Positions 5,745 through 24,424 of a stretch of 64,000 bases of DNA are shown here, piece by piece; the stretch's first letter is position 1; the number at the start of each line of letters is the position of its first letter. Made by a program: the position numbers and the translations under genes. The DNA comes from Candidatus Doudnabacteria bacterium. Its GTDB lineage: Bacteria; Patescibacteriota; Doudnabacteria; UBA920. The notes beneath the pieces were generated by a model. It ran no database searches and was not told the origin of the DNA. It saw only the letters and a program-made list of their open reading frames with translations. Location: the NCBI GenBank assembly GCA_003151625.1, contig PLYC01000007.1, forward strand, positions 2,929 to 66,928, read 5' to 3'.

Positions 5745-5797
5745 GCATTTTTGTTTTTTTAATTTAATGTTTTTAAAATAAAAAGGCGTAAGTCCTA
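5745..5797. repeat. Mini-copy of the GGACTTACGC-TIR MITE family
   Basis: ggacttacgc...gcgtaagtcc inverted termini flanking 33 nt of A/T. Sits immediately upstream of the arsR-like gene. Confidence 0.5.
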
Positions 5798-5820
5798 TGA
5801 TTGATTAAACAAGGAATGCC

Positions 5821-6126
5821 ATGCTTACCGATAAACAAATAACAAAAATTCGCAAGGCGTTTAACGGTACCGATCAAAGAGTAATTTTTAAAATACTCGG
5901 CGATACCAACCGTTACCGCATTTTTGAAATGTTGGGAAAACATTCCCGGCTTTCCGTAGGCGATATGGCAAAAATTTTAAGAATTTCCATACCCTTAGCC
6001 TCACAACATCTTAAAATTTTAGAGCAAGGCAATATGCTGGAAAAGGAGAAGCAGGGCCAGAAAGTTTATTACAAGCTTAGAACCGATAACACGATTGCCC
6101 ACGCGATTACCAAAGGCGTCCTCTAA
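5821..6126 (+). CDS. ArsR/SmtB-family HTH transcriptional regulator
   Basis: HTH SVGDMAKILRISIPLASQHLKILEQGNML and wing GQKVYYKL. RBS aaggaa. Confidence 0.7.
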   Translation: MLTDKQITKIRKAFNGTDQRVIFKILGDTNRYRIFEMLGKHSRLSVGDMAKILRISIPLASQHLKILEQGNMLEKEKQGQKVYYKLRTDNTIAHAITKGVL

Positions 6127-6138
6127 CCACTACTAAAT

Positions 6139-6372
6139 ATGCCAAAAGAAAATGTTATTATTCTTGCCAGAGAATTATTTAAAATCAGGCTTAGTTCTTC
6201 CCGGGAAGGCGTTGCCGAAGATGACGGCGTGCATGAAATGAAAATCAAAGGCATTAGCTCTTACAACGACGTGGTAATAGAAAAGTGGTATAAGGAGGCC
6301 ATAAGAACAGCTGAAATTATAATCGCTTTGGAAGAAGAATATTTGAAAACAGATAATTTTCCACATAATTAA
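6139..6372 (+). CDS. Hypothetical protein, co-oriented 12 nt after the arsR-like gene
   Basis: 77-aa ORF, tightly spaced operon-like arrangement. Confidence 0.4.
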   Translation: MPKENVIILARELFKIRLSSSREGVAEDDGVHEMKIKGISSYNDVVIEKWYKEAIRTAEIIIALEEEYLKTDNFPHN

Positions 6373-6386
6373 TTTTTAAAAAATAT

Positions 6387-6887
6387 ATGTCGTTTTCAAA
6401 CGGAATGAACGAAAAAAAAGAAAAGTCTGAAGGTAGAAATCAGGTTTATTTGTATACCGCCGCCGGTGTGATAGTTCTGGCGCTCGCCATTTGGGGAGTC
6501 TATGCTTATAACCATTCGGGCAGTCAGACCGGCACTCAACAGGTCTCGCTCCAGGACAACTTAAATAACACTCCGGCCGCAACCACAACCCCGACCTCCA
6601 CCCCCGCAAGCATTCCCGAGAAGCTTTCTTATGGTGCCGCTATACAAGCCTACCCAGAACGTTTTCAGTTTAAGCTATGCCAGGGAACCCCAGCCACGAT
6701 TGCCGTAAAGAAAGGCACGCCAGTTATGCTGGATAATAGAGATACAACAGCACATACCTTTAAGGCCGATACCCAAACTTTTAGAATTGCTGGTTTAGAT
6801 TACGCTGTGCTTTATCCGCAAGTTCTAGGTAACCTTGTGGTCACCTGCGACAGCAAAGACCGGGTGACGTTAAATGTTGAAAAATAA
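6387..6887 (+). CDS. Hypothetical exported protein with N-terminal TM and Thr/Pro linker
   Basis: TM helix, TTPTSTPAS linker, then a beta-rich C-terminal domain. Confidence 0.45.
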   Translation: MSFSNGMNEKKEKSEGRNQVYLYTAAGVIVLALAIWGVYAYNHSGSQTGTQQVSLQDNLNNTPAATTTPTSTPASIPEKLSYGAAIQAYPERFQFKLCQGTPATIAVKKGTPVMLDNRDTTAHTFKADTQTFRIAGLDYAVLYPQVLGNLVVTCDSKDRVTLNVEK

Positions 6888-6892
6888 ATTAA

Positions 6893-7060
6893 ACAAATTC
6901 GAAATACGAATACCTGCCTCGACTTGACTGCCGAGTCAAGGCGGGTCGAAATTCGAAACAAATTCGAAATTTAAAATTTTAATATTTAAAACAGGTTTTG
7001 AATTTACTCATTTAGAATTTAAATATTGTTTCGTATTTCGGATTTAGTGCTTCGGATTTA
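6893..7060. repeat. Large imperfect palindromic AT-rich region built from 'attcgaaat / atttcgaat' units
   Basis: aaattcgaaatacgaata ... cgaaattcgaaacaaattcgaaattt mirrored by gtttcgtatttcggattt...cttcggattt. Includes hairpin gcctcgacttgactgccgagtcaaggcgg. Related regions at 48150-48290 and 62633-62775. Confidence 0.45.
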
Positions 7061-7076
7061 TTTTGAAAGGAACTTT

Positions 7077-7433
7077 ATGGATTCATATAACTCACCCAGT
7101 ACCAAACCGCTTTACCGCGGTACGCAAATTGTTTGGTATATTGTCGGCCTTTTGGAAGCGCTCTTGGCGTTTCGGTTTGTGCTTAAACTGCTCGGTGCCA
7201 ATCCCGCCGCCGGATTTACCAGCTTCATTTACGGCATTACCTATCCTTTTGCCGCTCCGTTCTTAAGTGTGTTTAAGATAAGCGATGTTAACGGCAGTAT
7301 TTTTGAATGGACTACCTTGCTGGCCATGTTGGTTTACTGGCTGATTGCCATGGCTATTGTTAAATTGTTTTTAATGGGCAAAACCGTTTCCACTCCGGAA
7401 GCCGCGGTCAAGTTAGACAACCAGGATAAATAA
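7077..7433 (+). CDS. YggT-family membrane protein
   Basis: LLAFRFVLKLLGANPAAGFTSFIYGITYPFAAPF matches the YGGT signature. RBS gaaagga. The 7026 start in the ORF track overlaps the palindrome and is judged spurious. Confidence 0.6.
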   Translation: MDSYNSPSTKPLYRGTQIVWYIVGLLEALLAFRFVLKLLGANPAAGFTSFIYGITYPFAAPFLSVFKISDVNGSIFEWTTLLAMLVYWLIAMAIVKLFLMGKTVSTPEAAVKLDNQDK

Positions 7434-7445
7434 TAGTTTAATCTT

Positions 7446-7628
7446 GTGGTTATCAAAAAAACTAGGCGGATAATTATCATACTGATAGTCACACTGTCAT
7501 TTGTAAATGTGTTTATTAGCACATCTTTGCATGATAAGTCGACAAACGTAGCCATTTCTACGGGCGTGTTAGTTGCCACTATCGTGCTTGCTGTATTACT
7601 TATTTTGACTGAAGCACGGAAAGAATAG
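7446..7628 (+). CDS. Possible 60-aa two-TM membrane peptide (GTG start)
   Basis: Two hydrophobic helices. No clear RBS. Confidence 0.25.
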   Translation: MVIKKTRRIIIILIVTLSFVNVFISTSLHDKSTNVAISTGVLVATIVLAVLLILTEARKE

Positions 7629-7667
7629 AGATAGAAAAATAATATTACAATGGAAAGGAAAAAGTTT

Positions 7668-8036
7668 ATGACAAAAACATCTAACGCCGGAAAAGTTGCC
7701 GGAGCTGTAGGACTGGCAGCCGGAATTGCGGCAGCGGCAGCGTATTATTTTTACGGAAAAGAAGGTAAAGGCCACAGAAAGGAAGCCGAGACTTGGACAA
7801 AAAAGGCCAAAGCGGAAGTTTTGGAAAAAATTAAAGAAATGAAAAATATCAGCCAAACGGCTTATGAAAAGGTCATAGCGGAGGTTTTGGCGAAATACAA
7901 ACTGGTTAAGAATATTGATCCTAAAGAATTGCAAAGTTTTGGGCAAGAGTTAAAAGCTCATTGGACAGAAATTTCCAAACAAGCGGCCAAGCTTAGCGGA
8001 AAAGGCGTCTCAAAAAAACCTGCGACGAAAATATGA
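7668..8036 (+). CDS. YtxH-like membrane-anchored protein (N-terminal GxxxG/Ala-rich helix plus coiled coil)
   Basis: KVAGAVGLAAGIAAAAAYYFYGKEGKGHRKE pattern. RBS ggaaagg. Paralog of 10221..10604 in inverted orientation. Confidence 0.5.
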   Translation: MTKTSNAGKVAGAVGLAAGIAAAAAYYFYGKEGKGHRKEAETWTKKAKAEVLEKIKEMKNISQTAYEKVIAEVLAKYKLVKNIDPKELQSFGQELKAHWTEISKQAAKLSGKGVSKKPATKI

Positions 8037-8305
8037 TTATTTTACTTGTTTTAGTTTTTGGCGCGATTGTCGGAATTATTGCCTTTGCGGTTAAGGGTTC
8101 CGGTTATGGGTTGTGGTGGGACATAATGCTGGGGATTGTCGGGTCTATTATTGCGAGTTTCGTTATGACAGCCGCTTACATTTTAAACCGTTTTGGCAGG
8201 GCAGATGTTATAGGGTTTAATTGGTACAGTATGGTTATTGGGACAATTGGCGCTCTTACGGTAATTTACGGCGCTTGGCTTTATAATAGAGCAAATTTAA
8301 TATAA
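8033..8305 (+). CDS. GlsB/YeaQ/YmgE-family transglycosylase-associated small membrane protein
   Basis: ATGA overlap with the upstream gene. GIVGSIIASFVM ... GFNWYSMVIGTIGA pattern. Confidence 0.6.
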   Translation: MIILLVLVFGAIVGIIAFAVKGSGYGLWWDIMLGIVGSIIASFVMTAAYILNRFGRADVIGFNWYSMVIGTIGALTVIYGAWLYNRANLI

Positions 8306-8306
8306 A

Positions 8307-8396
8307 TAGGACTTACGCACTTGGTCAAGCCCTTGTGGTTTGAGGCAACAATATATAGAGTTTCTATCATTTTTGCCTCAAACGCGTAAGTCCTAA
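8307..8396. repeat. Internally deleted copy of the GGACTTACGCG-TIR MITE
   Basis: taggacttacgc ... gtttgaggcaa...ttgcctcaaacgcgtaagtccta. Retains the 3' hairpin module of the full copies. Confidence 0.6.
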
Positions 8397-8450
8397 TAAA
8401 AATAATTTTTAAACGGTTTAATTATACGATTAAACCTAAAAAGGAGATAT

Positions 8451-8615
8451 ATGGCGACAGATGAAGATGTACAAAATGCCGATGACGATGCGTCAGACGC
8501 TCAAACTAGCGCTGATGTCGCTAAAGATGATGCCAAGCAGGTGCGTAGTGATGTGATAGACGAACATCATCAAATATCCGATGATGAAGAAAATAAAGCC
8601 GAGGCTTTGGAGTAG
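8451..8615 (+). CDS. 54-aa highly acidic small protein (MATDEDVQNADDDASDAQTSADVAKDDAKQV...)
   Basis: Strong SD aaaaaggagatat upstream of ATG. Below the ORF-track size cutoff. Confidence 0.5.
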   Translation: MATDEDVQNADDDASDAQTSADVAKDDAKQVRSDVIDEHHQISDDEENKAEALE

Positions 8616-8661
8616 AAAGGTCGCAATTTTTGAAATTATTAATAACTAAACAACATTTTAT

Positions 8662-8913
8662 ATGGGAATTATACTTTGGATAATATTTGGCGCTTTGGCC
8701 GGGTGGATTGCCTCGGCAATTATGGGGAGCAGGGACGGTGTGTTAATGGATATAGTAATTGGAATAGTTGGCGCGGTTTTGGGCGGCTGGATTATGAGCC
8801 TCTTTGGCCAGGGCGGCGTATCGGGCTTTAATCTTTATAGCTTCCTGGTGGCAATACTAGGAGCAGTCGTTCTAATTTGGATTGTAAGAGCTATAAGGGG
8901 TTCTAAAGTTTAA
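8662..8913 (+). CDS. GlsB/YeaQ/YmgE-family small membrane protein
   Basis: MGIILWIIFGALAGWIASAIMGSRDG...DIVIGIVGAVLGGWIM classic signature. Confidence 0.7.
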   Translation: MGIILWIIFGALAGWIASAIMGSRDGVLMDIVIGIVGAVLGGWIMSLFGQGGVSGFNLYSFLVAILGAVVLIWIVRAIRGSKV

Positions 8914-9090
8914 AACATAATAGTAAGTCCTACATAGGCTAATATACAGGCTTTTTGACAAGGCTTTTTGACGGTTTGACTTTGTGCTTAATACCTGTCA
9001 TACTTATAAAGCAAAAAATATTTATAGAAAAGTCGTCGAATTTCACAAATATATTTTAAATTTGCAACTTTATTTTTAAACTCTAAATCC

Positions 9091-9288
9091 ATGAATGGTG
9101 TAATTAAGAAAAAGATTGACAAAGGCTTTGGTTTTATTACCGTTGCCGGTCAAGACAAAGACTTATTTTTTCACAGCAAGTCTTTGGTTGGCGTCACTTT
9201 TGACGAAATCCAAGAAGGTGATAACGTCTCTTTTGATGTAGAAGATTCTCCAAAAGGACCGAACGCTGTTAACGTACAACGCGTTTAA
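9091..9288 (+). CDS. cspA: Cold-shock protein (CspA family)
   Basis: GVIKKKIDKGFGFITVAGQDKDLFFH...GDNVSFDVE: RNP1/RNP2 motifs of the cold-shock domain. Confidence 0.85.
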   Translation: MNGVIKKKIDKGFGFITVAGQDKDLFFHSKSLVGVTFDEIQEGDNVSFDVEDSPKGPNAVNVQRV

Positions 9289-9300
9289 TTTGTCTTTAAA

Positions 9301-9337
9301 AAAGCCCCTCCGATTATCGGAGGGGCTTTTTGTTTTA
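9301..9337 (+). terminator. Rho-independent terminator
   Basis: aaagcccctccgattatcggaggggcttttt gtttt. Confidence 0.7.
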
Positions 9338-9369
9338 TTGGCTGGTAGTGTCAAAGGTGACCTTTGACA

Positions 9370-10032
9370 CTATTTAAGCAAGCTTTTTAAGTTGGCAATT
9401 TTACCGTCCGTAATATCCCATTCGTAAATGTCTGCGTTGGCAATATCTTTGTCCGTGTCCAGTCCTCTATAAATTCTGGGAATGTCGGGGAAGTGGAAAA
9501 GCAATAATCGGATAACACCATTGTGGGTAATAATGCCCACATTTTGTTTGTCGTGGTTGGAAATAATATCTAAAATCGCGCTTATGGATCTTTGCCTGAC
9601 ATCCTCCACGCTTTCCCCGCCAAAAGGGCGGTAGTCATAGCTTTGCATGGCTTCGCGTTCGCGGTTATCGGGCAAGAGCCTGTCCCATTCCTCATGGTTT
9701 TTGCCGCTCAAACTCCCAAAGTCGCGCTCGCGTAATCGAAAATCGTGAAAGACCGGTATGGGTTCCTTCAAACTTTTGTTTATTAGCGCGGCTGTTTCCT
9801 CGGCCCTAAGCAGGTAAGAAGTAAACAATACATCTAAATCTAAAACTTCAACAAATTTTGCGATTTTTTGGATCTGCAAAACTCCCTGAGTGTCCAGGTA
9901 GTCGTTAATTTGTACACCTTGCCTAATTTTTTGTTTATTACTTATGGTCTCTCCATGGCGAATAAAGTAGAGAGTGGTGGAGCTTCTAATTTTCATTGAG
10001 GGTAGTTTAGAGTCTCGGAATTTAGAACTCAT
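9370..10032 (-). CDS. Histidine phosphatase family protein (phosphoglycerate-mutase-like)
   Basis: YFIRHGET catalytic RHG motif with branch-1 histidine phosphatase architecture. Hairpin tagtgtcaaaggtgacctttgacacta abuts the stop. Confidence 0.65.
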   Translation of the reverse strand: MSSKFRDSKLPSMKIRSSTTLYFIRHGETISNKQKIRQGVQINDYLDTQGVLQIQKIAKFVEVLDLDVLFTSYLLRAEETAALINKSLKEPIPVFHDFRLRERDFGSLSGKNHEEWDRLLPDNREREAMQSYDYRPFGGESVEDVRQRSISAILDIISNHDKQNVGIITHNGVIRLLLFHFPDIPRIYRGLDTDKDIANADIYEWDITDGKIANLKSLLK

Positions 10033-10049
10033 TTTAAAAATAATTTGTA

Positions 10050-10146
10050 GACGAAATTTCAGGATTTTGAGCGGATTGGCTCTTAATAAATTTTGACGTT
10101 TAGCCAGAGCTAAGCGGAAAAATTTTTAAGGCCAAGACGCCAAAAT
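10050..10146 (+). repeat. About 90-nt intergenic repeat, copy A (possible small RNA)
   Basis: ggattttgagcggattggctcttaataaattttgacgtttagccagagctaagcggaaaaatttttaaggccaagacgccaaaat is approx 90% identical to 19628-19733 in the same orientation. Contains ttagc-caga-gctaa hairpin. Confidence 0.55.
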
Positions 10147-10188
10147 GCTGGAATTGCAGCCCGAAGGATTTTTAAAATGGGTTCTTAG

Positions 10189-10209
10189 TAGGACTTATGT
10201 GTAAGTCCT
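10189..10209. repeat. Solo fused TIR pair of the MITE family (taggacttatgtgtaagtccta)
   Basis: 21-nt perfect palindrome made of the two MITE termini with no internal sequence. Confidence 0.45.
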
Positions 10210-10220
10210 ACTTGCTTTTT

Positions 10221-10604
10221 TTAGCTCTTACGGGGCTTTTTTTTGATAGCTGGTTTTTTAGCCACCAGGTTGGTAGCTTCATTGACTATTTTTTCCCAGT
10301 GGCTTTTGAGTTCAAGGCCAAAAGCCTGCAGCTCTTTGGGGTCAATATTTTTGGCTTGTTTGTACTTGGCCAAAACTTCCTCGGCCGCCTGGTTGTAAGC
10401 TTGTTTGCTAACGGACTTCATTTTTTTTACTTTTTCCAGCAAGTCGGATTTCGCTTTTTTGCTCCAGCCGGACAATTCTTTTAGATGTTTTTTACCTTTT
10501 TTACCGGAAAAATAATATCCGGCCGCGGCCGCGGCCGCTCCGGCGGCCAAAGCCGCCATACCCAAACTTCCTGCTACTTTAGCCGCAGTTGTTTTCTTTT
10601 GCAT
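10221..10604 (-). CDS. YtxH-like membrane-anchored protein, paralog of 7668..8036
   Basis: MQKKTTAAKVAGSLGMAALAAGAAAAAAGYYFSGKKGKKHLKE. RBS gaaagga. Shared C-terminal motifs EVLAKYK.KNIDPKELQ.FG.ELK.HW. Confidence 0.5.
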   Translation of the reverse strand: MQKKTTAAKVAGSLGMAALAAGAAAAAAGYYFSGKKGKKHLKELSGWSKKAKSDLLEKVKKMKSVSKQAYNQAAEEVLAKYKQAKNIDPKELQAFGLELKSHWEKIVNEATNLVAKKPAIKKKPRKS

Positions 10605-10694
10605 AAATAGTCCTTTCAATTTTCTACTAAATACTAAATTTGGTGATTGCCACGTTTAGTATTTTTAGTCACTTTAGTATTTAGTAGAGGGTTG

Positions 10695-10985
10695 TTATTT
10701 TTTTTCTTTGCCGCTCTGGGCGGATTTCCTCAAGTTATTAAAGAAACTGGCAAAATATTTTAAGTTCGTTCCTTTTTCCCTGACGTTTTCCCTAAGATCG
10801 GACAAATCTTTGGCAATAAAATCTGCCTCATTTTTTGCTTTTCCGGAAATGTACTTTATGTCACTGGAAATTTTTATAATATAAATTGCCAGCACGGCCA
10901 AAAGCGCGGTTAAAACCACAACAGCAATGCTGGTAATAAGAAAAAAAATGTCCATTTTGGCGAATTCGGTCATAGTATTGATCAA
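10695..10985 (-). CDS. DUF948-like membrane protein (N-terminal TM plus coiled coil)
   Basis: TM helix IFFLITSIAVVVLTALLAVLAIYII followed by a charged helical region. Confidence 0.4.
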   Translation of the reverse strand: MINTMTEFAKMDIFFLITSIAVVVLTALLAVLAIYIIKISSDIKYISGKAKNEADFIAKDLSDLRENVREKGTNLKYFASFFNNLRKSAQSGKEKK

Positions 10986-11078
10986 AAGATATTTGTTGAT
11001 ATTTAGGGATATTAGTAGATATTATTTTGTCACCCAATATCTATTAATATCTCAATTTCAATTAATATCTTTTTTGAA

Positions 11079-11570
11079 CTATTTATAATATTCCCTAATC
11101 TGAAACAGGAAGTACATGGAAATTACAACATTAAAAATCAAATTAATAAAACTTCCATCAATCAACTGGCCAACCGCGCTTACTAAAACCGCGTAATAAA
11201 CCAAATGCCAGCTTTTAAGGCTTCGTTTAAAAAGTCCCGGCAAAGCCACGGCTTCCATAATAAAAGCAATTAGGCCAATTAAGGCTCCAAGCAAATAAGT
11301 TATCTGGTTGCCATAACCGCCATACATTTTAGCCACCGGGCTAAAAACCGCGCTAAGTCCAATGGCCGCCAACATTGCTAGAGCGCCAAAAATCATTAAG
11401 ACTAAGGTTATCCAGGGCCCGAATTTTACAATCCATTCTTTAGCGACTGGGGGCAGATGGAAGGGGACTTTTTTGTGGAGATAGGTATCAAAAAAGTCTT
11501 CCATTTGCTTTAAAAAACCATGGGGTTGCGGGGCGACTATAGGGTTTTGATTTGGTTGTTGTGTGTCCAT
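11079..11570 (-). CDS. Hypothetical polytopic membrane protein
   Basis: 163 aa with four predicted TM segments. No recognisable motif. Confidence 0.45.
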   Translation of the reverse strand: MDTQQPNQNPIVAPQPHGFLKQMEDFFDTYLHKKVPFHLPPVAKEWIVKFGPWITLVLMIFGALAMLAAIGLSAVFSPVAKMYGGYGNQITYLLGALIGLIAFIMEAVALPGLFKRSLKSWHLVYYAVLVSAVGQLIDGSFINLIFNVVISMYFLFQIREYYK

Positions 11571-11625
11571 ATATTTGTTTGAGTATTAGCGATATTTACA
11601 AATATCAGCCAATATCTTAATTACT

Positions 11626-11799
11626 TAGGACTTACGCGCTTGGCCGAGTATGAGGCATTTTGTGAGGATTTTTGGAGGCGTAGTTTGACTACGTCGGCAA
11701 AAACCGCAGCAAAATAACGAAGTAATCGGCCAAGCCCCTGCGGTTTGAGGCAACAAGATATAATTTTTGTTCATTTTTGCCTCAAACGCGTAAGTCCTA
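11626..11799. repeat. Full-length (approx 175 nt) MITE with TIR TAGGACTTACGCG
   Basis: Termini taggacttacgcg / cgcgtaagtccta. Internal hairpins cttggccga/tcggccaag, cgtagtttgactacg, gtttgaggcaa/ttgcctcaaac. Near-identical inverted copy at 20600-20774. Confidence 0.7.
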
Positions 11800-11834
11800 T
11801 GTCTGTTAATTTAATTTCTAATATTTATATTATA

Positions 11835-12404
11835 TCACGTTTTTCCATACTTACTAAATAATTCCTCCAAAATGTTCTGGTAGCTTTGGCGGATATTTTG
11901 GTCGCGTCCGACCTCCAAAACTTCATCGTTAATGTTGGTAGCCGCCGTTGTCCAGTTGTAAGACCCGCTGGCGTAAGCTTTTTCCGTAACCAGAGCCTTC
12001 ATGTGCATAATGCCCGAGTGATCCTGCTCATAGACAGGTATGCCGTCGTCGCGCAGAGCGTCTATTATTTGTTTTTGCCCGGGAGCTTGGTTGTATTGGT
12101 CGCGATCGGTAATGCCCACTACGGTCAGGCCGCGGTACTTGGCCGCAATTAAAGCCTGTTCTATATCCTGCCTGGTAAAAGTGTAAACCGCGAAGTAAAC
12201 AAATTTATCCGCGTCCCGGATTTGATTAATAATTTCATCGTTCAACGCGTGATCCTGATTGTAGTAAACGCTGATTTCATGCGTTGGCAAGTAGCGGTAA
12301 GAATAGTAAAATTGTCCACAAAGCGCGATGAGTGAAATAATAACAATCAAATAAACTATGTCTTTTTTGTTTTTCATATTTGTGTCAGGAAATTGTGAAA
12401 TCAA
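11835..12404 (-). CDS. Phospholipase D-family (Nuc-like) protein with N-terminal TM
   Basis: HMKALVTEKAYASGSYNWTTAA = HxK(x4)D/E(x6)GS.N PLD/Nuc signature. Confidence 0.5.
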   Translation of the reverse strand: MISQFPDTNMKNKKDIVYLIVIISLIALCGQFYYSYRYLPTHEISVYYNQDHALNDEIINQIRDADKFVYFAVYTFTRQDIEQALIAAKYRGLTVVGITDRDQYNQAPGQKQIIDALRDDGIPVYEQDHSGIMHMKALVTEKAYASGSYNWTTAATNINDEVLEVGRDQNIRQSYQNILEELFSKYGKT

Positions 12405-12439
12405 GAAATTAGGAAATTGGGGAGCGTGTCCCCAATACC

Positions 12440-12874
12440 TTAATATCCCAATTTCTTAATTTCCTTTTTAATTTCTCTTTTTTGTATATACTCTCGTTTA
12501 TCTGCCTTTTTTCTCGCTTTGCCTAAGCCTATCCTCATTTTTATCAATCCGCGATTACCCAAAAAAATATCCAGGGGAATTACTACCAACCCTTTTTCTT
12601 TTCCGAGCAATTTGTTTATTTCCGATTTGTTTAAAAGAAGTTGTCGGGTTTGGGTCGGCTGGTATTTTTCATCGGGCGCGTACTTGTAAGGCCCAATATG
12701 GCAATTAATTAAACTGGCCCCCCTGGCCGACACGGTTACATAAGCCCCGGCCAAAGAAACATTGCCGCCTTTAACGGATTTTACTTCTGCCCCGCTCAAT
12801 ACCAAACCGGCAGTAAAGTTTTCTTTAATATCGTAATCAAACCTTGCTCTCTTATTGTCCGCAAAAATTTTCAT
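12440..12874 (-). CDS. smpB: SsrA-binding protein SmpB
   Basis: NKRARFDYDIKENFTAGLVLSGAEVKS...GNVSLAGAY, with a Lys/Arg-rich C-tail typical of SmpB. Confidence 0.9.
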   Translation of the reverse strand: MKIFADNKRARFDYDIKENFTAGLVLSGAEVKSVKGGNVSLAGAYVTVSARGASLINCHIGPYKYAPDEKYQPTQTRQLLLNKSEINKLLGKEKGLVVIPLDIFLGNRGLIKMRIGLGKARKKADKREYIQKREIKKEIKKLGY

Positions 12875-12950
12875 ATCCGGTGTTTAATCTAATATATATT
12901 GTACCACCATTTATACTCTTGTCTATAAGCAAATTTTGACTTAAAATATA

Positions 12951-12988
12951 AGTGGAGAAAATTCTCGGCCGAGAAAATCATCCACTTA
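12951..12988. repeat. Palindromic hairpin of the AAGTGGA..TTC.CGGCCG.GAA..TCCACTT family
   Basis: aagtggagaaaattctcggccgagaaaatcatccactt. A near-identical hairpin at 13811-13848 brackets the leader element plus paaX-like gene. Confidence 0.5.
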
Positions 12989-12991
12989 TTA

Positions 12992-13257: not shown

Positions 13258-13273
13258 AAATAAGCAACATTTT

Positions 13274-13795
13274 ATGCTGGAAGATTACAATCTTGCTGAC
13301 TCCATTTTGGCCTTTTTTTCCGAGACGCTGAATTTATTGCCGAGGCCTTTGGAAATGCCTTACCAATGGGTTAAACGTAACAAAGGGATGAATTATAGGA
13401 GTTACTACGATTCCGTGCAGGGCTTAAAGCGTCGCGGGGCGGTAAAATTGACAAAAAAGCGGGATAAAACATTCATCCAGTTAACGGAAAAAGGTTTATT
13501 GGATGTTTTACTGCTGAAAGCGGGCGTGAGCAGAGAAAGGGTCTGGGATGGGAAGTGGAGAGTGTGTATTTTTGACATTCCGGAAGAAGCTCACTTACAG
13601 CGGGACTATTTTCGCCGCCTGCTTAAGCAGTACGGTTTTTATAAATTGCAGGCCAGTGTTTTTGTGCACCCGTTTACATTGAACCGAGAGGCAATAGCAT
13701 ACTTAAGTAAAACAGGTCTGAATAAATATATTCGTTTTTTAAAAGTTGAAGAAATGGACAATGATGAGGATTTAAAGAAGTTTTTTAACCTATGA
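13274..13795 (+). CDS. PaaX-like (PaaX C-terminal domain) putative transcriptional regulator
   Basis: RERVWDGKWRVCIFDIPEEAHLQRDYFRRLLKQYGFYKLQASVFVHPF matches the PaaX_C consensus. Start reassigned to in-frame ATG at 13274. Confidence 0.5.
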   Translation: MLEDYNLADSILAFFSETLNLLPRPLEMPYQWVKRNKGMNYRSYYDSVQGLKRRGAVKLTKKRDKTFIQLTEKGLLDVLLLKAGVSRERVWDGKWRVCIFDIPEEAHLQRDYFRRLLKQYGFYKLQASVFVHPFTLNREAIAYLSKTGLNKYIRFLKVEEMDNDEDLKKFFNL

Positions 13796-13810
13796 ATGAA
13801 TAGATAGAAA

Positions 13811-13848
13811 AGTGGATAAATTTCACGGCCGTGAAATTTACCCACTTC
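13811..13848. terminator. Palindromic hairpin (same family as 12951 and 37763) acting as terminator
   Basis: agtggataaatttcacggccgtgaaatttacccact. Confidence 0.5.
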
Positions 13849-13936
13849 GTAATTTTTTTAAAATCCGGTATTTTGGAATTTTTAGATTTTTGATTTTGGT
13901 GAAACAAACGATTTTGTGTTATAATGCAGGTATTAT

Positions 13937-15706
13937 ATGCCAAGTGAAACATCTAAAAATTTTATAAACCACCTTTTGTCATCGGCTTTGTCCGGGCTCA
14001 AGCTGACTTCCTATTTGGACGTTTTAGATATTACGCCCCCATCCAATCCTGATTTTGGCGATTATTCCAGCAATGCGGCTTTAATTTTGTCAAAAAAACT
14101 AAAAATTAACCCTAAAGAAATCGCCGGGAAAATTGTTGACGCCATAAATAATATAGATTTAGAAGGCAAACTGGAATCGGTTACCGAACAGGGCGGGTTT
14201 ATTAACTTTAAACTTTCACAAAAATTTTTGCTTAATAATCTTGGTACTATAATTGACCAACGGGACTTGTACGGATGTTCGGTGTTGGGTGAAGGGAAAA
14301 CTGTAGTTGTCGAGTATTTCCAAAATAACGTAGCTAAGCCGCCTCACGTAGGGCACCTGCGTTCGTCCGTAATTGGCGATTGTCTTTTAAGAGTTTTTAA
14401 ATCGCAAGGCTACAAAACTATTTCCGATACTCACATTGGTGACTGGGGCGTCCAGTTCGGCATTTTGCTTTACGCGTTTAAGACAATGAAGCCGGATATG
14501 GAAGTTTTGGAAAAAGACCCGATTAACGAGTTAAATAAACTTTATGTAGCCATGTCCGCAAAAATAGAAGCCCAAGCCGAGCTTCGGGATTTAGCCAAAG
14601 CGGAATTTAAGAAGCTGGAAGACGGAGATGAGCAGAACCGCAAACTCTGGCAGTTGTTTGTGGACGAATCCTTAAAAGATTTTGAACGCTACCGGATTTT
14701 GCTTGGAGTCTTGCCATTTGATTATAATTTGGGAGAAAGTTTTTACGAAAAACATATGCCGGAAGTTTTGGCGGAATTTCAGGAAAAGAAACTTATAACA
14801 AAAGGCGAAACAGGGGAGCTTTATATTGATTTGGAAAGCTTCGGTCTTGGCCGCTGTATTTTGGTAAAAAGCGACGGAGCGACCACTTACCATTTGCGGG
14901 ATTTTGCCACTTACCTTTACCGACGCAAACAGTTTAATTTTTTAAAAAATCTGTACATTGTAGACAATCGTCAGTCGCACCATTTTAAACAGCTATTTAA
15001 GTCGCTCGAACTTGCAGGCTATCCGGCCGAAAAAGACAGTACCCATATTGATTTGGGATTTATGAGTTTGCCCGAAGGTGCTATTTCCACGCGCAAAGGC
15101 ACAACAATTAGTCTGGAGAATTTAATTACCGAGGCCAACAAGCGCGCTTTAAAAATTATTGAAGACAAGAATCCGGATTTGGAAAATAAAGAAGCGGTCT
15201 CTAAGCAAGTCGCGCTGGCGGCCATAAAATATTTTGATTTATCACATAATCGTAAAACAGAAATAATCTTTACTTGGGACAACGCTTTGTCGTTTGAGGG
15301 CAATACAGGGCCGTATTTGCAGTACACGCACGCGAGAATTCATGGAATATTGCGTAAATCGCGGAATAATACGGAACTTAACGCGGAAAATGCGGAACGT
15401 GGTTTTCCGCGCCTTTCCGCGTCAGATTCCGCGTCTTTCCGCGACACCGAACTCTCCGTTCTTCGCAAACTCATCCAATTCCCCGAAGTCGTTACCCAAG
15501 TCTCCCAGGACTATTTCCCCAACAACCTCTGTAATTATTTATTTGAACTTTCCCAAACCGTTAACTCTTTTTATCAGGAAGTTCCCGTCCTAGCCGAAAC
15601 CGACGAAACCCTAAAATCCTTCCGCCTAAATTTAATTACCGCCACCGCGCAAGTTATAAAAAATGGGCTTTATCTGTTGGGAATAGAAGCGCCGGAGGAA
15701 ATGTGA
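13937..15706 (+). CDS. argS: Arginyl-tRNA synthetase
   Basis: PHVGHLRS (HIGH-class motif), ArgRS N-terminal domain, DALR anticodon-binding C-terminal with YTHARIHGILRK. Contains the in-frame repeat insertion at 15358-15443. Confidence 0.9.
   Translation: MPSETSKNFINHLLSSALSGLKLTSYLDVLDITPPSNPDFGDYSSNAALILSKKLKINPKEIAGKIVDAINNIDLEGKLESVTEQGGFINFKLSQKFLLNNLGTIIDQRDLYGCSVLGEGKTVVVEYFQNNVAKPPHVGHLRSSVIGDCLLRVFKSQGYKTISDTHIGDWGVQFGILLYAFKTMKPDMEVLEKDPINELNKLYVAMSAKIEAQAELRDLAKAEFKKLEDGDEQNRKLWQLFVDESLKDFERYRILLGVLPFDYNLGESFYEKHMPEVLAEFQEKKLITKGETGELYIDLESFGLGRCILVKSDGATTYHLRDFATYLYRRKQFNFLKNLYIVDNRQSHHFKQLFKSLELAGYPAEKDSTHIDLGFMSLPEGAISTRKGTTISLENLITEANKRALKIIEDKNPDLENKEAVSKQVALAAIKYFDLSHNRKTEIIFTWDNALSFEGNTGPYLQYTHARIHGILRKSRNNTELNAENAERGFPRLSASDSASFRDTELSVLRKLIQFPEVVTQVSQDYFPNNLCNYLFELSQTVNSFYQEVPVLAETDETLKSFRLNLITATAQVIKNGLYLLGIEAPEEM
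15358..15443. repeat. In-frame palindromic CGCGGA-repeat insertion inside argS
   Basis: cgcggaataatacggaacttaacgcggaaaatgcggaacg followed by four TTCCGCG units (ttttccgcgcctttccgcgtcagattccgcgtctttccgcg). The first 40 nt are approx 88% identical to a segment of ileS (17486-17527). Encodes SRNNTELNAENAERGFPRLSASDSASFRD between conserved ArgRS blocks. Confidence 0.6.
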
Positions 15707-15787
15707 AGCCGCTGATTGGTCGCTGATTAGTACGCTGAAGGTCGTAGCCCATCGATTTATCGGCCTGAAGAATTAAATGTAAGAATT

Positions 15788-16489
15788 ATGACTGGAGAAA
15801 TTCAAAAAAGGCCACAGCCTGATCGCCAAGATATTGTCGAGGCGAAAGATAATGTTGAAGTATTGAAAGCGGATTTTGTTCATCTTTGCCGTTCTTTAGA
15901 AAGTTTGGTTGCTGAATTGAAGCAGCGGGGTTCGGAAGGAGAAAAATTGGCTAGGGGATTATTTTTAGAACAGACTTTAACAGACTTGCAACGTCCAGAA
16001 AACGAAAGAGGTTTTGATGCAGATTTTAGTGCCGTAGAGAGAAATACAGATATCACAGCCCCTGATTTTATCTCACGTTGGCTATTTGGGTATTCTGGTG
16101 CAATTAATAATTTAGGTAAAGCCTACCTTCGGGTAAAAACTTTTTATAAAGAAGATTCAAGTTTTTCTGATTTTATTACAAATTTTGAGAATTTTATCAC
16201 AAGCGTCAATAAAAACAATACCAAATGCAAAATTTCACCTCTGCCCGAGTTATTGGCGCCAATGGACGAAGAGAGGTTTGAGTTAAATGATAATTCTGTA
16301 GAGCAAGCGTACGCATCGGTCCCAAAAATAAGACAAGAGGTCGGAATAAAATTGACAGAACATTCTAAAATAGAATCAGAAAATGTATATCTGATTATTG
16401 ACCTAGCGGCTATGCCATTGAATGAAACTGGATTCAAATCACAGAAAGCAAAAGTTAAAATAGCATCGCCTGCTCAATGGGAAAATTAA
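15788..16489 (+). CDS. Hypothetical protein
   Basis: 233-aa ORF between argS and ileS. No recognisable domain. Confidence 0.45.
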   Translation: MTGEIQKRPQPDRQDIVEAKDNVEVLKADFVHLCRSLESLVAELKQRGSEGEKLARGLFLEQTLTDLQRPENERGFDADFSAVERNTDITAPDFISRWLFGYSGAINNLGKAYLRVKTFYKEDSSFSDFITNFENFITSVNKNNTKCKISPLPELLAPMDEERFELNDNSVEQAYASVPKIRQEVGIKLTEHSKIESENVYLIIDLAAMPLNETGFKSQKAKVKIASPAQWEN

Positions 16490-16513
16490 TAAAGTAACGC
16501 TTAAATTTATTTT

Positions 16514-19500
16514 ATGACGGAAGAAAAACCGCAAACATCATCAACCCCCAATTTTAATAACCTGGAAAAGGGAGTTTTACAGTTTTGGGATGAGAATAAA
16601 ATTTTTGAAAAGTCTTTGGAACAGACCAAGGACAATGAGCCTTACATTTTTTATGATGGGCCGCCTTTTGCCACGGGACTGCCGCATTATGGCCATATTT
16701 TGGGGTCTACGGTTAAAGATTCCTTTGGCCGCTATTATACGATGAAAGGCCGGTTCGTCCGGCGCGTTTGGGGCTGGGATTGCCACGGTTTGCCCATAGA
16801 AAATATTGTTGAACAGCAGTTAAAAATTTCCGGAAAAAAACAAATAGAGGAACTCGGCGTGGATAAGTTTAACCAGGCTTGCCGGGAAAATGTTTTAAGG
16901 TTCGTGGATGAATGGGGAAAAATGGTCAAGCGCATGGGGCGCTGGGTGAACTTTGACAATTCCTATAAAACCATGGACACCACCTATATGGAGAGCGTGT
17001 GGTGGTCTCTCCAGCAGATTTGGAACAAGGGATTAATTTACGAAGACCGCAAAGTTTTGCTTTACTGCTCGCGCTGTGAAACTCCAATTTCCAATTTTGA
17101 AGTGGCAATGGACAACAGCTACCGTGACGTGACCGAGGAATCGGTTTACGCTAAATTCAAAATGCCCAAGGGCCAGAGAATTATTAACGACCTGACCAAC
17201 GATAAGACTTTTGTCTTAGCCTGGACAACTACGCCATGGACCTTGCCCGGCAATACATCGCTGAACGTCGGAGCGGATATAGTTTATGTAATGATCGAGA
17301 TGGAAAATGGCCCTGCCCGCCAGTCGCCTGACGGCTCCAGCCGGATGGCAGGCGGGGAAAGATATATTTTGGCCAAGGAACGATTGTCTGTAATAGATGG
17401 TTCTTACGAGACTGTCGCCGAATTTCCGGGCAGGGCAATTGCCGGGCTGGAATATGAACCGTTATATCCCGGCGTTATCCCTTCATCGCGGAATAATGCG
17501 GAATTTAACGCAGAAGGACGCGGAAGTAATCATCCTGAATTTGTGGGTGATCCCGCCAAATCGCATCACATTTATATTGCCGACTTTGTTACCACCACCG
17601 ACGGAACCGGGGTTGTTCACAATGCGGCCATGTATGGAGAAGAAGACTATCAACTGGCCAAAGAAAAAGATTTGCCTCGAATGGATATGCTTGACCACAA
17701 GGGCCGCTATTTGGAATATTTGCCGGAGAGTTTGCGCGGCGTATTTTTTAAAGACGCGGAAAAAATAGTGCTTAAGGAATTGGCGGCCAAAAATTTGGTT
17801 TATAAGACCGAACATTATACTCACAGCTACCCGCACTGCTATCGATGCGCTACTCCGCTGTTTTATAACGCGCTGCCGGCCTGGTTTATTAATATACAAA
17901 AAATAAAATCCCAACTGCGCAAACTAAACTCCGAAGAAATAAATTGGCAGCCGGAACATCTAAAAATGGGGCGTTTTGATAAAAGCATAGAGTCCGCGCC
18001 GGATTGGAATATTTCCAGAAACAGGTTTTGGGCTACGCCATTGCCGTTTTGGAAATGCGGAAACGATGAATGTAAAAATGTAATTTGTGTCGGATCAGTT
18101 GATGAATTAAAGGAAAAATCAAATAACTTTGGCCAGGTTTACCCAAATTTTAATTCGGAAAATCTGCAGATGACCGATTTGCATCGCCCTTACATAGACC
18201 AAGTGGTCGTAACCTGTCCGAAGTGCGCGGATAATATGAAGCGCGTGCCTGAAGTTGTGGACTGCTGGGTGGAAAGCGGTAGTATGCCGTTTGCCGAGTT
18301 GCATTATCCGTTTGCAAACCAGGAATTATTTAAGAAACGTTTTCCGGCCGATTTTGTGGCCGAATATATTGGCCAAGTCAGGGCTTGGTATTATGTTATG
18401 CTTGTGGTCTCCACAATTGCTTTTGAACACGCCCCGTTTAAAAATATTGTTACAACAGGAAATATTTTGGCGGAAGACGGCAGTAAAATGTCCAAGAGCA
18501 AAAATAATTATCCTGACCCGTGGATTTTAATAGAAAAATATGGAATAGACGCATTGAGGTTTTATCTTTTAACCAGCCCGGTTATGAATGCCGATGATGT
18601 AAATTTTTCCGAAAAAGGCGTGCAGGAAATCGGCCGCAAGGTAAATATGCTGGTTTACAATGTCTGGAGCTTTTTGCGCCTTTATACCAAAGATAAATTC
18701 AGCGGCGAACTTCCGGTATCGGAAAATATTTTAGACAGATGGATTATTTCCCGGCTTAGCCAAGTCCACAAACAAGTCACGGGATTTTTGGATGTTTATG
18801 ACACCGTGCGCGCCGGCAAAGCCATGACTGCTTTTATAGACGAACTTTCTACCTGGTATTTGCGCCGCAGCCGCGACCGCATAAAAAATAACGACGAGGC
18901 CGCGAAAATCGCGTTGGCTACTTTGGCCTATGTTTTAATAGAACTTTCCAAAATGTTGGCGCCGTTTATGCCATTTTTGGCGGAGTTTATTTATCGCGAT
19001 CTCACTGGCCAAGAATCTGTACATTTAACATTGTGGACAGTAGAAATTGCCGGCGATAACGAAGTCGTCCGCCAAAAAATGGCTTTTGTTAAAGATTTGG
19101 TGGAAAGCGGCCTTTCTTTGCGTAAAGAAGCCGGCTTTAAAGTTCGCCAGCCCCTGGCCGAGGTTGAATATCATATTAAGAATAAAGATCTCGTGCTGGA
19201 CGCGGATTTTGAAAAACTTTTGGCCGATGAGCTCAACGTTAAATTAATAAGCAACCGTCAGGATTTTGTGGCCAAAGGCGGCTGGGCGTACAAGGACACC
19301 CCGGGTTTTAAACTTCAAATTAACCTGGAATTAAGCGAGGATCTAAGGCAGGAAGGTTTGGCTAGGGAAATCGAGCGCCAAATTCAGGACTTAAGAAAAA
19401 AGAGCGGCCTTAGAGTGGGAGAACTGGTGGATGTTTATTACAATACCCAGGACGAGAAACTAGAGGAAGCTTTGCTGAAATTGGTAGATCGCAAAAAAAC

Positions 19501-19603
19501 TTTTGTCAGCCAAATCAGCAAAAGCCTGGAAGTGGAAGTGGATTTTGAAATTCAAAGCCAGATTGAAGGCAAAACTGTTTGGTTGGGGATGATAAAAATA
19601 TAG
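16514..19603 (+). CDS. ileS: Isoleucyl-tRNA synthetase
   Basis: HYGHILG (HIGH), GSKMSKSKNN (KMSKS), CP1 editing region, 1029 aa. Confidence 0.95.
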   Translation: MTEEKPQTSSTPNFNNLEKGVLQFWDENKIFEKSLEQTKDNEPYIFYDGPPFATGLPHYGHILGSTVKDSFGRYYTMKGRFVRRVWGWDCHGLPIENIVEQQLKISGKKQIEELGVDKFNQACRENVLRFVDEWGKMVKRMGRWVNFDNSYKTMDTTYMESVWWSLQQIWNKGLIYEDRKVLLYCSRCETPISNFEVAMDNSYRDVTEESVYAKFKMPKGQRIINDLTNDKTFVLAWTTTPWTLPGNTSLNVGADIVYVMIEMENGPARQSPDGSSRMAGGERYILAKERLSVIDGSYETVAEFPGRAIAGLEYEPLYPGVIPSSRNNAEFNAEGRGSNHPEFVGDPAKSHHIYIADFVTTTDGTGVVHNAAMYGEEDYQLAKEKDLPRMDMLDHKGRYLEYLPESLRGVFFKDAEKIVLKELAAKNLVYKTEHYTHSYPHCYRCATPLFYNALPAWFINIQKIKSQLRKLNSEEINWQPEHLKMGRFDKSIESAPDWNISRNRFWATPLPFWKCGNDECKNVICVGSVDELKEKSNNFGQVYPNFNSENLQMTDLHRPYIDQVVVTCPKCADNMKRVPEVVDCWVESGSMPFAELHYPFANQELFKKRFPADFVAEYIGQVRAWYYVMLVVSTIAFEHAPFKNIVTTGNILAEDGSKMSKSKNNYPDPWILIEKYGIDALRFYLLTSPVMNADDVNFSEKGVQEIGRKVNMLVYNVWSFLRLYTKDKFSGELPVSENILDRWIISRLSQVHKQVTGFLDVYDTVRAGKAMTAFIDELSTWYLRRSRDRIKNNDEAAKIALATLAYVLIELSKMLAPFMPFLAEFIYRDLTGQESVHLTLWTVEIAGDNEVVRQKMAFVKDLVESGLSLRKEAGFKVRQPLAEVEYHIKNKDLVLDADFEKLLADELNVKLISNRQDFVAKGGWAYKDTPGFKLQINLELSEDLRQEGLAREIERQIQDLRKKSGLRVGELVDVYYNTQDEKLEEALLKLVDRKKTFVSQISKSLEVEVDFEIQSQIEGKTVWLGMIKI
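17486..17527. repeat. In-frame copy of the argS CGCGGA-repeat segment inside ileS
   Basis: tcgcggaataatgcggaatttaacgcagaaggacgcggaag versus argS tcgcggaataatacggaacttaacgcggaaaatgcggaacg. Encodes SRNNAEFNAEGRGS. Right arm is degenerate. Confidence 0.55.
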
Positions 19604-19627
19604 AAGCTACCTCAAAATTAGCTTTTG

Positions 19628-19733
19628 AGGAGAAATTGCGGAATTTTGAGCGGATTGGTTCTTAACAAATTTTGACGTTTAGCCGGAGCTAAGCGGAAAA
19701 ATTTTTAAGACCAAGGCGCCAAAATTACGCGAT
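19628..19733 (+). repeat. About 90-nt intergenic repeat, copy B (possible small RNA)
   Basis: ggaattttgagcggattggttcttaacaaattttgacgtttagccggagctaagcggaaaaatttttaagaccaaggcgccaaaatt. Approx 90% identical to 10050-10146. Confidence 0.55.
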
Positions 19734-19840
19734 TTATACCAAAATGGAATTTTGAGATAGCTTCAAATTAATTTTACCCACTATTTCGGTTTTTAGTAAA
19801 AAGTGTTAAAATGAGAATATAATAAGCTAATCATTTTACT

Positions 19841-20593
19841 ATGGATAATGAAATCGATTCGATTATTCCCGAAGACGGCCTAAAGAACCAGCCCCAGGTT
19901 AAGCCAGCCGAGCCAAAAAAAGCTGTTGCCCCAAAGACTATAAAGCCTGTTAAACCCTTGGTTGAAGGCATAAATTCGCCAAAAAATACCCAGGACGTAA
20001 TTTTGGTAAAGAATAATTTAAGCCAAAAAGAAAAAGATCTGCTCACTGAATCACCGTCCTCAAATCAAAGCGCAAACAAGCCGGAACCCAGGCTTATGCC
20101 CGAATCGGTTTCTTTTTCAATAAATAAAAAGAGCCATCATATTGGCAGATGGCTGTTAATTTTTGTGGTGTTATTAATTTTAGTGGCCAGCGGCTATGAG
20201 TTTTATGTTTGGAAGTTGCAGAACGGACAAACTCCAATTGTGGGGCATTATCATCCCGCTGTGCAGGCAACAGAACCATTTCCGTTAGCAGGTGGAACCG
20301 TGCCAACATCTACCTTAATTACGGCAATATCCAGTTCGACACCTTTGGGGATTGCATCCACAACCCCAACATCGACTCCTCCAGCCGAGCCGGTTTTACA
20401 GGTTAAAATATCATCCACGCCCACCGGATTTTTAAACGTTAGAAGCACGCCTTCGCCCTCGGGTAAAGTTGTAACCCAGGTTCACCCCGGAGAGATTTAC
20501 ACTTACACCAAAACACAAAGCGGCTGGTATGAAATAACCTATAGCGGGCTAAATCAAGGATGGGTTAGCGGGCAGTATGTGGTTAAACAATAA
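19841..20593 (+). CDS. Membrane-anchored protein with C-terminal bacterial SH3 (SH3b) domain
   Basis: Central TM (WLLIFVVLLILVASGY), STPT linker, and C-terminal GFLNVRSTPSPSGKVVTQVHPGEIYTY...GWYEITYSGLNQGWVSGQYV = SH3_3 pattern. Confidence 0.55.
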   Translation: MDNEIDSIIPEDGLKNQPQVKPAEPKKAVAPKTIKPVKPLVEGINSPKNTQDVILVKNNLSQKEKDLLTESPSSNQSANKPEPRLMPESVSFSINKKSHHIGRWLLIFVVLLILVASGYEFYVWKLQNGQTPIVGHYHPAVQATEPFPLAGGTVPTSTLITAISSSTPLGIASTTPTSTPPAEPVLQVKISSTPTGFLNVRSTPSPSGKVVTQVHPGEIYTYTKTQSGWYEITYSGLNQGWVSGQYVVKQ

Positions 20594-20599
20594 CAAGAT

Positions 20600-20774
20600 T
20601 AGGACTTACGCGTTTGAGGCAAAAATGAACAAAAATTATATCTTGTTGCCTCAAACCACAGGGGGCTTGGCCGATTACTTCGTTATTTTGCTGCGGTTTT
20701 TGTCGACGTAGTCAAACTACGTCTCCAAAAATCCTCGCAAAATGCCTCGTACTCGGCCAATCGCGTAAGTCCTA
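20600..20774. repeat. Full-length MITE copy, inverted relative to 11626-11799
   Basis: Near-exact reverse complement of the 11626 element including all three internal hairpins. Confidence 0.7.
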
Positions 20775-20786
20775 AGATTATAAATT

Positions 20787-24305: not shown

Positions 24306-24424
24306 GTAGGACTTACGCGTCCTAAATTCATTAAAATCCACTTTGTTGCACTTATGCCCGGCCGAGCATAAGTGCAACAAGACAAAATTTGGATAAAAAA
24401 TCAGTTTTTTGTTATAATTTACAC

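Follow-up and report, generated by a model that had tools for sequence, protein, structure and literature searches.

Genomes of Patescibacteria measure about 1 Mb, and mobile DNA is usually said to be scarce in them. MITEs (miniature inverted-repeat transposable elements), which are short, non-coding and non-autonomous, have been described in other bacteria and include the Correia elements of Neisseria, RUP of S. pneumoniae and Nezha of cyanobacteria, while REPs are palindromic units of roughly 20-40 nt that make no target duplication. MITEAba12 of Acinetobacter was assigned to the insertion sequence (IS) ISAba12 by its common ends and by the length of its target-site duplication (PMC6382973), and we applied the same two arguments to a family of inverted-end repeats in a 64,000-nt stretch of DNA from an uncultured, Doudnabacteria-like Patescibacterium (this whole stretch is called the window below). 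A broad survey of prokaryotic MITEs mentions neither IS701 nor Patescibacteria (PMC11602168), and our literature search found no paper on MITEs of the ISAba11/IS701 group or on MITEs of Patescibacteria. The window repeats are very likely ISAba11-group MITEs (IS701 family) that have both moved and decayed in recent times. On this reading they make up a patescibacterial family for which recent gain, loss and erosion are directly documented.

The window elements resemble ISAba11 in the 13-nt terminal inverted repeat (TAGGACTTACGCG, compared to TAGGACTTACGCA in ISAba11) and in a 5-bp, AT-rich target duplication. They differ from it in that they are 63-175 nt long, carry no transposase gene and contain two interior modules, A and B, which are unrelated to the interior of the IS; the hosts differ as well, ISAba11 being gammaproteobacterial (Acinetobacter baumannii) and the window host a Patescibacterium. 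MITEAba12 is similar in being small, non-coding, capable of forming hairpins, located in AT-rich intergenic DNA and equipped with inverted repeats common with an IS. Its duplication is 9 bp long, as with ISAba12, whereas that of the window family is 5 bp long, as with the ISAba11 group; duplications have survived in 40% of the MITEAba12 copies (PMC6382973) and in 54% of the elements evaluated here. Unlike the described bacterial MITEs, the window elements have as their interior a long hairpin that shows compensatory changes across classes of Patescibacteria and recurs between other termini (see below).

Element boundaries were set by reading the sequence. In the window, the motif GGACTTACGCG with at most one mismatch was counted 10 times, where chance would give 0.5, and none of 100 shuffles reached 10. 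The inventory (Table 1) comprised two intact elements, one 89-nt derivative, one mini element of 63 nt and, in addition, four short remnants, every one of them situated between long open reading frames (ORFs), in agreement with the intergenic location claimed in a first, purely sequence-based description of the window (the original prediction). The 13-nt repeat bounds the elements and is perfect on both full copies, which are mutual reverse complements, as had been described, with a global identity of 96.0% and arms that are 96% and 93% complementary. For the smaller pieces, existence was confirmed while extents had to be revised: the internally deleted copy ends at 8395 and has 89 rather than 90 nt, the mini copy begins at 5735 (the position formerly given, 5745, falls inside its left repeat), the palindrome of fused repeats reaches 10210 and measures 22 nt, the fragments placed at 24304 and 37866 actually begin at 24307 and 37870, and the remnant at 8921-8932 had been overlooked. 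The terminal repeats of the mini element are slightly degenerate and enclose an AT-rich spacer with neither module A nor module B. In the 11626 copy, module B and the right terminal repeat overlap by one base, at 11787. The whole element is predicted to fold into a Y shape in which the ends form the stem and the modules two internal hairpins; as single-stranded DNA, the 11626 element reached -46.8 kcal/mol (z = -8.35). ORFs of at least 50 aa with a start codon were absent from the window elements (63-175 nt). As a possible peptide-coding sequence we considered an ATG...TGA frame of 12 codons in module A of the window copy, and rejected it because the ATG is missing there from most other subfamilies.

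Table 1. Elements of the family in the window, parts of the 11626 copy, and state of the matching site in two collinear metagenome contigs, L120 and L128. MITE status is assigned with the confidence given in the text.
Feature	Positions	Strand	Description	State in relative
63-nt mini element	5735..5797	.	ends TTGGACTTACGCA and GGCGTAAGTCCTA	L128: same
89-nt derivative without module A	8307..8395	+	perfect 5-bp duplication ATAAA on both sides	L128: full 175 nt at the orthologous site
12-nt remnant	8921..8932	+	TAGTAAGTCCTA, flanked by duplication copies CATAA / CATAG	L128: 274-nt copy with ~100-nt nested insertion
22-nt palindrome	10189..10210	.	TAGGACTTATGTGTAAGTCCTA; both repeat ends fused	L128: same
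Intact MITE	11626..11799	+	174 nt; forward orientation, with module A preceding module B between the two repeats	L128: full copy at 1254-1428, 96.6% identical
Left terminal inverted repeat	11626..11638	+	TAGGACTTACGCG; same as the ends of autonomous ISs L072 and L134	
Module A	11639..11734	+	96-nt irregular hairpin, tandem G-A internal loops, motifs GAGGCA and TAACGAAG.AAT	
Module B	11743..11787	+	45-nt hairpin GTTTGAGGCAA...TTGCCTCAAAC, repeat family D9	
Right terminal inverted repeat	11787..11799	+	CGCGTAAGTCCTA	
Intact MITE	20600..20774	-	175 nt, reverse orientation	L120: neither this copy nor the PAP2 gene
18-nt remnant	24307..24324	+	TAGGACTTACGCGTCCTA; immediately 3' of the EamA-like gene stop codon; duplication CTAAG/CTAAA	L120: clean empty site ...AAAAT CTAAA TTCATT...
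Empty site	~24860		no element in the window	L120: full copy
Solo right end	37870..37882	+	CGCGTAAATCCTA, 1 mismatch, intergenic	

The terminal repeats connect the family to autonomous ISs. The ISAba11 end is identical to that of the window elements at 12/13 bases and the ends of two autonomous ISs (L072 and L134) at 13/13, and because the terminal repeats match those of ISAba11 and its relatives, the window elements carry ISAba11-group ends. In A. baumannii pRBH2-4, ISAba11 is 1101 bp long, with ends TAGGACTTACGCA and TGCGTAAGTCCTA and the duplication AAAGA; similar ends were found in an IS on a Methanosarcina barkeri plasmid, in ISMesi2 (Allomeiothermus) and in an IS of Gloeocapsa. One genome per species was scanned for TAGGACTTACGCGNTTG, which returned at least 119 loci. 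About 280 chance matches to one 16-base word are expected in ~600 Gb by our own arithmetic; most of the loci showed two inverted copies of the repeat 72-230 bp apart, and paired inverted ends at this spacing are beyond chance. The hosts were many Patescibacteria, Methanosarcina, Methanoregula, Chloroflexota, Cyanobacteria, Poribacteria, Planctomycetota and others. The clinically known ISAba11 is thereby tied to a very widespread group, in which the ends of 13 nt have been conserved over a range that reaches from Acinetobacter to Methanosarcina and to candidate phyla.

At seven loci, the ends lay 1057-1148 bp apart with a transposase gene between them. L072 (1074 bp) encodes a 322-aa transposase that scored 369 bits on the NCBIfam model NF049921 for the IS701 family (cutoff 250); the partner transposases reached 369 and 361 bits on this model and also matched Pfam DDE_Tnp_1 and DDE_5. 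Relatives of the L072 transposase on annotated plasmids are named "IS701-like element ISAba11 family transposase" and ISMesi2, and the partner transposases are 36-47% identical to plasmid-borne members of the group (36% for ISAba11). Autonomous copies are present in Patescibacteria too: L134 (1075 bp) lies beside DUF4012, glycosyltransferase and MreB genes, L050 was found in a metagenome-assembled genome (MAG) of the Parcubacteria group, and the copy in L084, from an Uhrbacteria MAG, is interrupted by the end of the locus; further autonomous examples with TAGGACTTACGCG ends were L033, L092, L009 and L027. The search for an autonomous IS with the same ends, which the original prediction had proposed, was therefore successful (L072, L050, L134, L033 and ISAba11). 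For the IS in L027 (5411-6467), the ORF list shows a single 522-aa frame with a Uma2-family domain followed by transposase domains, which may be an insertion into a Uma2-like gene or an artefact of the ORF listing. A tblastn search of the 64-kb window with the cognate transposase gave no match, in agreement with the original prediction. The protein collection contained 4392 homologues of the L072 transposase at E <=1e-40, and the best homologous transposases were mostly on contigs of 1.0-1.6 kb. That MITEs appear without their partner in binned genomes is probably due to repeated ISs, which would break assemblies onto ~1-kb contigs and escape binning.

MITEs with the same ends were also found outside Patescibacteria. 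Those of Methanosarcina (117-118 nt) and those of Chloroflexota, Cyanobacteria, Poribacteria, Planctomycetota and others (72-230 nt) share the terminal repeat, the 5-bp duplication and the presumed transposase group with the window elements, whereas their interiors are unrelated and lack module A. When the MITEs were clustered by interior, several families were obtained. The cluster of the window copies had 27 members, which came from Patescibacteria of the Doudna, Saccharibacteria, Yanofsky and Moranii types and from two MAGs with the label Bdellovibrionales, the Methanosarcina interior family had 16, and the remainder fell into many small families; interiors outside the window-copy cluster were unrelated. 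Since families with the same ends have unrelated interiors, the transposase needs the ends only. From their sequences, the same-ended families of other taxa look as if they had arisen independently around common ends.

The target-site duplication was evaluated over 81 elements. A perfect 5-mer repeat was present directly outside TAGGAC...GTCCTA in 44 of them, compared to 0.9 on average and 6 at most when the left flank of one element was paired with the right flank of another, and no signal was obtained for other duplication lengths or boundaries. In the metagenome scan, 22/46 elements had a perfect 5-bp duplication. The duplicated 5-mers were varied and AT-rich. Those of autonomous ISs read AAAGA (ISAba11), ATGGT (M. 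barkeri IS), ATGCT (Gloeocapsa IS), ATATA (L134), TCATA (L027) and TGATA (L033). The elements thus combine the features by which MITEs are recognised (small size, no transposase gene, terminal repeats, a fixed duplication, polymorphism between relatives and ends common with an autonomous IS) with those of the ISAba11 group (the repeat sequence, the 5-bp duplication and an IS701-family DDE transposase in the partner). The original prediction of a non-autonomous MITE family in full, deleted and remnant states was upheld by the shared IS ends, the duplications and the site polymorphism.

This polymorphism was observed in comparison to L120 and L128, two contigs of one metagenome sample (JGI 3300076763) that follow the same gene order as the window (collinear) and have 91-97% identity to it in shared genes. 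Five sites were polymorphic between the window and these contigs (Table 1), in line with the recent mobility that had been proposed, and mobile-element turnover is visible between populations that are 91-97% identical. At 8307, the difference is a deletion between two TTGGYCAAG direct repeats at the base of module A. At 24307, where the left duplication copy occupies 24302-24306, the window has 20 extra nt compared to L120 (site near 6550), corresponding to the remnant and one extra 5-mer, and this pair of filled and empty sites confirms the 5-bp duplication; the insertion target, CTAAA, includes the stop codon of the EamA-like gene, and the duplication kept this stop intact. Two copies in the relative have derived changes in common, which fits a recent copy of a copy. 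The piece nested in the L128 copy (3920-4193) is ~100 nt long and bounded by CCTGCC...GGCAGG, and small inverted-repeat pieces nested within module A were also seen in L047, L100, L112 and L079.

Some of the short forms had originally been taken for excised states, with a solo-repeat footprint among them. Excision footprints were rejected, as the remnants retain parts of the repeats together with both duplication copies and the 8307 element is full-length in the relative. Judged from these alignments, the short forms are internal deletions of long palindromes and not scars of transposase excision, the deletions probably having occurred by slippage or recombination between short repeats at the hairpin base.

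In the mechanism that we propose, a DDE transposase from an ISAba11-like IS elsewhere, which may be in the same genome now or may have been there formerly, would bind the 13-17-nt ends (TAGGACTTACGCG.TTG), cut the element out and join it into an AT-rich intergenic target by staggered cuts 5 bp apart, often no more than a few bases from a stop codon. Once resident, the long imperfect palindromes would lose their interior via short-repeat deletion, which would yield the 89-, 22-, 18- and 12-nt forms. Stop-codon-proximal insertion followed by erosion can in this way reshape 3' ends and spacers in compact genomes. An element-by-element table showed insertions often within ~35 nt of a stop codon.

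Several observations weigh against the assignment to recently mobile ISAba11-group MITEs. No autonomous IS was seen in the 64 kb covered, and the elements would have been mobilised in trans. The 8307 derivative is the sole window copy with a perfect 5-bp duplication; the flanking 5-mers of the 11626 copy, TTACT and TGTCT, agree at 3/5 bases, the 20600 copy shows a 4-nt AGAT match instead, and the L120 insertion near 24860 has an imperfect duplication (CCAAT vs TTAAT). Twice, a copy in more distant relatives occupies the intergenic region used in the window and has the same orientation; an old resident element would fit this as well, though the positions differ. Finally, module A is missing from the autonomous ISs and from same-ended MITE families of other phyla and is for this reason dispensable to the transposase, and the MITE model leaves the conservation of module A unexplained.

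Within the 27-member cluster, the conservation of module A concerns its fold rather than its sequence. RNAalifold predicted 26 pairs, with compensatory double changes at 18 of them; 94.4% of the cells pair in this structure, compared to 72.4% in shuffled alignments and 31-46% with slid partners, and the double-change cells numbered 81 vs 26 in shuffles. For 70 distinct metagenome sequences, the corresponding values were 93.2% vs 78.5% pairing and 258 vs 75 double-change cells, with double changes at 21/26 pairs. These values come from an alignment fitted to the model and thereby biased in its favour, and from a set that was collected with a fixed 18-mer, which sets the 3' arms of two helices. 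A covariance model (R1) scored 98.4 bits on module A of the 11626 copy and 104 bits on that of the 20600 copy (20666-20761). Those unpaired positions that are conserved, mostly purines, belong to GAGGCA, to the tandem G-A pairs and to TAACGAAG.AAT, and the invariant motifs of the module are GAGGCA and TAACGAAGAAAT. By these comparative measures, the covariation shows module A to be a fold under selection. Module B, in turn, varies among subfamilies and is absent from some, while others carry a different hairpin at its place.

Module A was also found between other termini. Among the first 130 loci, the covariance model located it outside ISAba11-type ends once (L002), between the arms of a different, perfect 21-nt inverted repeat, GAGATGGTTACAAAACTATTT; in the metagenome sample it was also present between AATAATTTCTGTG-type, ATGAGTTTCGCG-type and diverged TAGAAC-type termini. 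It lies between at least three kinds of terminus other than the ISAba11 type (GAGATGGTTACAAAAC, AATAATTTCTGTG and ATGAGTTTCGCG). A shortened module A occurs inside 161-nt elements with an outer stem ATACTATTTAAG... or ATACCATTTAAA..., which itself covaries. These elements lie on contigs (L136, L141, L148, L154, L157, L179, L181, L219 and L227) with Bacteroidota-like genes, e.g. for a TonB-receptor-like N-terminus and ribosomal protein S12, and showed neither a target duplication nor an Rfam match. Candidate roles of module A are assisting transposition by bringing the ends together, rendering insertions harmless by forming a 3'-end hairpin, or acting as an RNA. It is conceivable, though on balance we doubt it, that module A is a functional structured nucleic acid (RNA or strand-specific single-stranded DNA) that travels as portable cargo of different mobile elements. 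If this were true, it would represent an undescribed class of cross-phylum mobile structured element and not a passive palindrome. The fold raises the question of why a selfish element of 175 nt should have preserved a structure of 96 nt over dozens of compensatory changes.

An alternative explanation for the entire family is that the repeats are small structured RNA genes or cis-regulatory RNAs held by selection, the inverted ends serving as a closing stem. Such a family would account for the strong covariation of the 96-nt core, for the purine-rich conserved unpaired positions and for one position that alternates between G-C and G-U in 31 sequences. G-U pairs outnumber A-C pairs 72 to 19 in the raw count, which is inflated by the 18-mer search word. 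Without the word-fixed pairs the numbers are 45 vs 17, with 31 of the 45 G-U pairs at this one position, and the other pairs have 14 G-U vs 17 A-C, so that the G-U excess comes down to a single position. An RNA family would also fit the occupation of the same intergenic regions in the distant relatives L121 and L122. However, the insertion points within these common regions differ: they lie 6 vs 69 nt past the stop of the SH3 gene and 35 vs ~9 nt from the stop of the PLD gene. Across L121, L122 and L129, copies were found in some of the same intergenic regions at other positions, or not at all, and carried their own end and module B variants. Orthology was rejected as a simple explanation of the L121/L122 copies on account of these differing insertion points and genome-specific variants. 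Likewise, the copies cluster by genome and not by locus, perfect 5-bp duplications flank ends that equal those of a transposase-encoding IS, and presence or absence varies at several sites in the 91-97% identical relative. A scan of the window at Rfam 15 gathering thresholds returned two tRNAs only, a scan of the element up to E 10 returned nothing meaningful, and none of the matches at 13 module A loci was on the module itself. A significant orientation bias with respect to neighbouring genes was absent in 27 or 78 elements (same/opposite 28/40 on the 5' side and 26/40 on the 3' side). We consider an RNA family very unlikely, and the small RNA family in conserved synteny against which the original prediction had weighed its own claim does not agree with the differing positions and the grouping by genome.

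We also compared the elements to REP/BIME-like units spread by RAYT (a Y1, IS200/IS605-like transposase) and to multiplied terminator hairpins. The window repeats are likewise intergenic palindromes that often follow directly after stop codons, as REP/BIME units are abundant intergenic palindromes near gene ends, and two remnants score terminator-like, the 10189 palindrome being one. REP/BIME units are, however, much shorter, belong to a different transposase class and lack a target duplication, whereas the window family has a 5-bp duplication and ends that match a DDE-type IS. A RAYT-like gene was absent from Pfam scans of the neighbouring ORFs. The intact copies lack a T-run after the hairpin, and a consensus scan of these copies for outward promoters and terminators remained at chance level, only the two remnants being terminator-like. 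An origin of this kind is extremely improbable. To MITEs of the IS630/Tc1-mariner type, with ends GGACTTACGCG and a duplicated TA (the TA or TAG duplication suggested originally), we give practically no credence: although TA precedes 76/98 and follows 80/98 candidate end pairs at the GGAC...GTCC boundary, it belongs to the repeat itself (TAGGAC...GTCCTA), it also ends autonomous ISs, including ISAba11, that make 5-bp duplications, the variable 5-mer is duplicated outside it in 44 of the 81 elements, the partner transposase is of the IS701 and not the IS630 family, and the empty site in L120 has no TA-GGAC junction.

The genes near the elements encode SmpB, ArgRS, IleRS and PLD-like, SH3-domain, PAP2 and PaaX/Cas2-like proteins, as identified by Pfam scans of neighbouring ORFs. 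The protein collection lacks the window's own proteins (best IleRS match 86% identical). Because the top homologues of IleRS and the PLD-like protein are from Doudnabacteria and other Patescibacteria, the window was attributed to an uncultured Patescibacterium. The 20600 MITE lies 6 nt past the SH3-domain gene's stop and 12 nt past that of the PAP2 gene. This gene, which encodes a PAP2-family membrane protein (20787-21749), adjoins the MITE and forms with it a single indel of ~1.3 kb (~20594 to 21892); both are missing from L121 and L129 as well as from the close relative L120.

The window contains at least two further small repeat families with inverted ends, one of which also varies in presence or absence compared to a relative. 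The second family (D4; ~160 nt) has copies at 10025-10184 and 19602-19765, with cores that are 88% identical and inverted ends of their own, GAACYCATTTTAAAAAT and GAAGCTAYCTCAAAATT. Both D4 copies are cleanly missing from the close-relative contigs (L128 and L120) and lack a target duplication; the module A model matches their interior weakly, at 23 bits. A third MITE-like element at 2971-3134 is 164 nt long, with inverted ends of 18-27 nt (AGGGTCTGTTGCCGAATG...); its interior also matches the module A model weakly and includes module B's 3' arm, TTGCCTCAAAC. Families D1-D3 have GTTCGAACATCGTCCCA..GGCCAGCCA in common, followed by a terminator-like hairpin, and their copies lie at 49525-49585, 51039-51099, 51754-51814, 54250-54310 and 55089-55149 and also within 32613-34236. 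The 3' end of a tRNA (49480-49550) falls within the first D1 copy, and D2 members are located shortly past another tRNA (32192-32262); D1-D3 could represent gene ends that have been repeated, or repeats at integration sites. Short, perfect palindromes formed two additional families, at 45916-45956 and 56636-56676 (AACAATGGGCACCATTG.GC.C..CAATGGTGCCCATTGTT) and at 13817-13841, 37770-37794 and 57834-57858 (TAAATTTCACGGCCGTGAAATTTA), of which the latter scores terminator-like.

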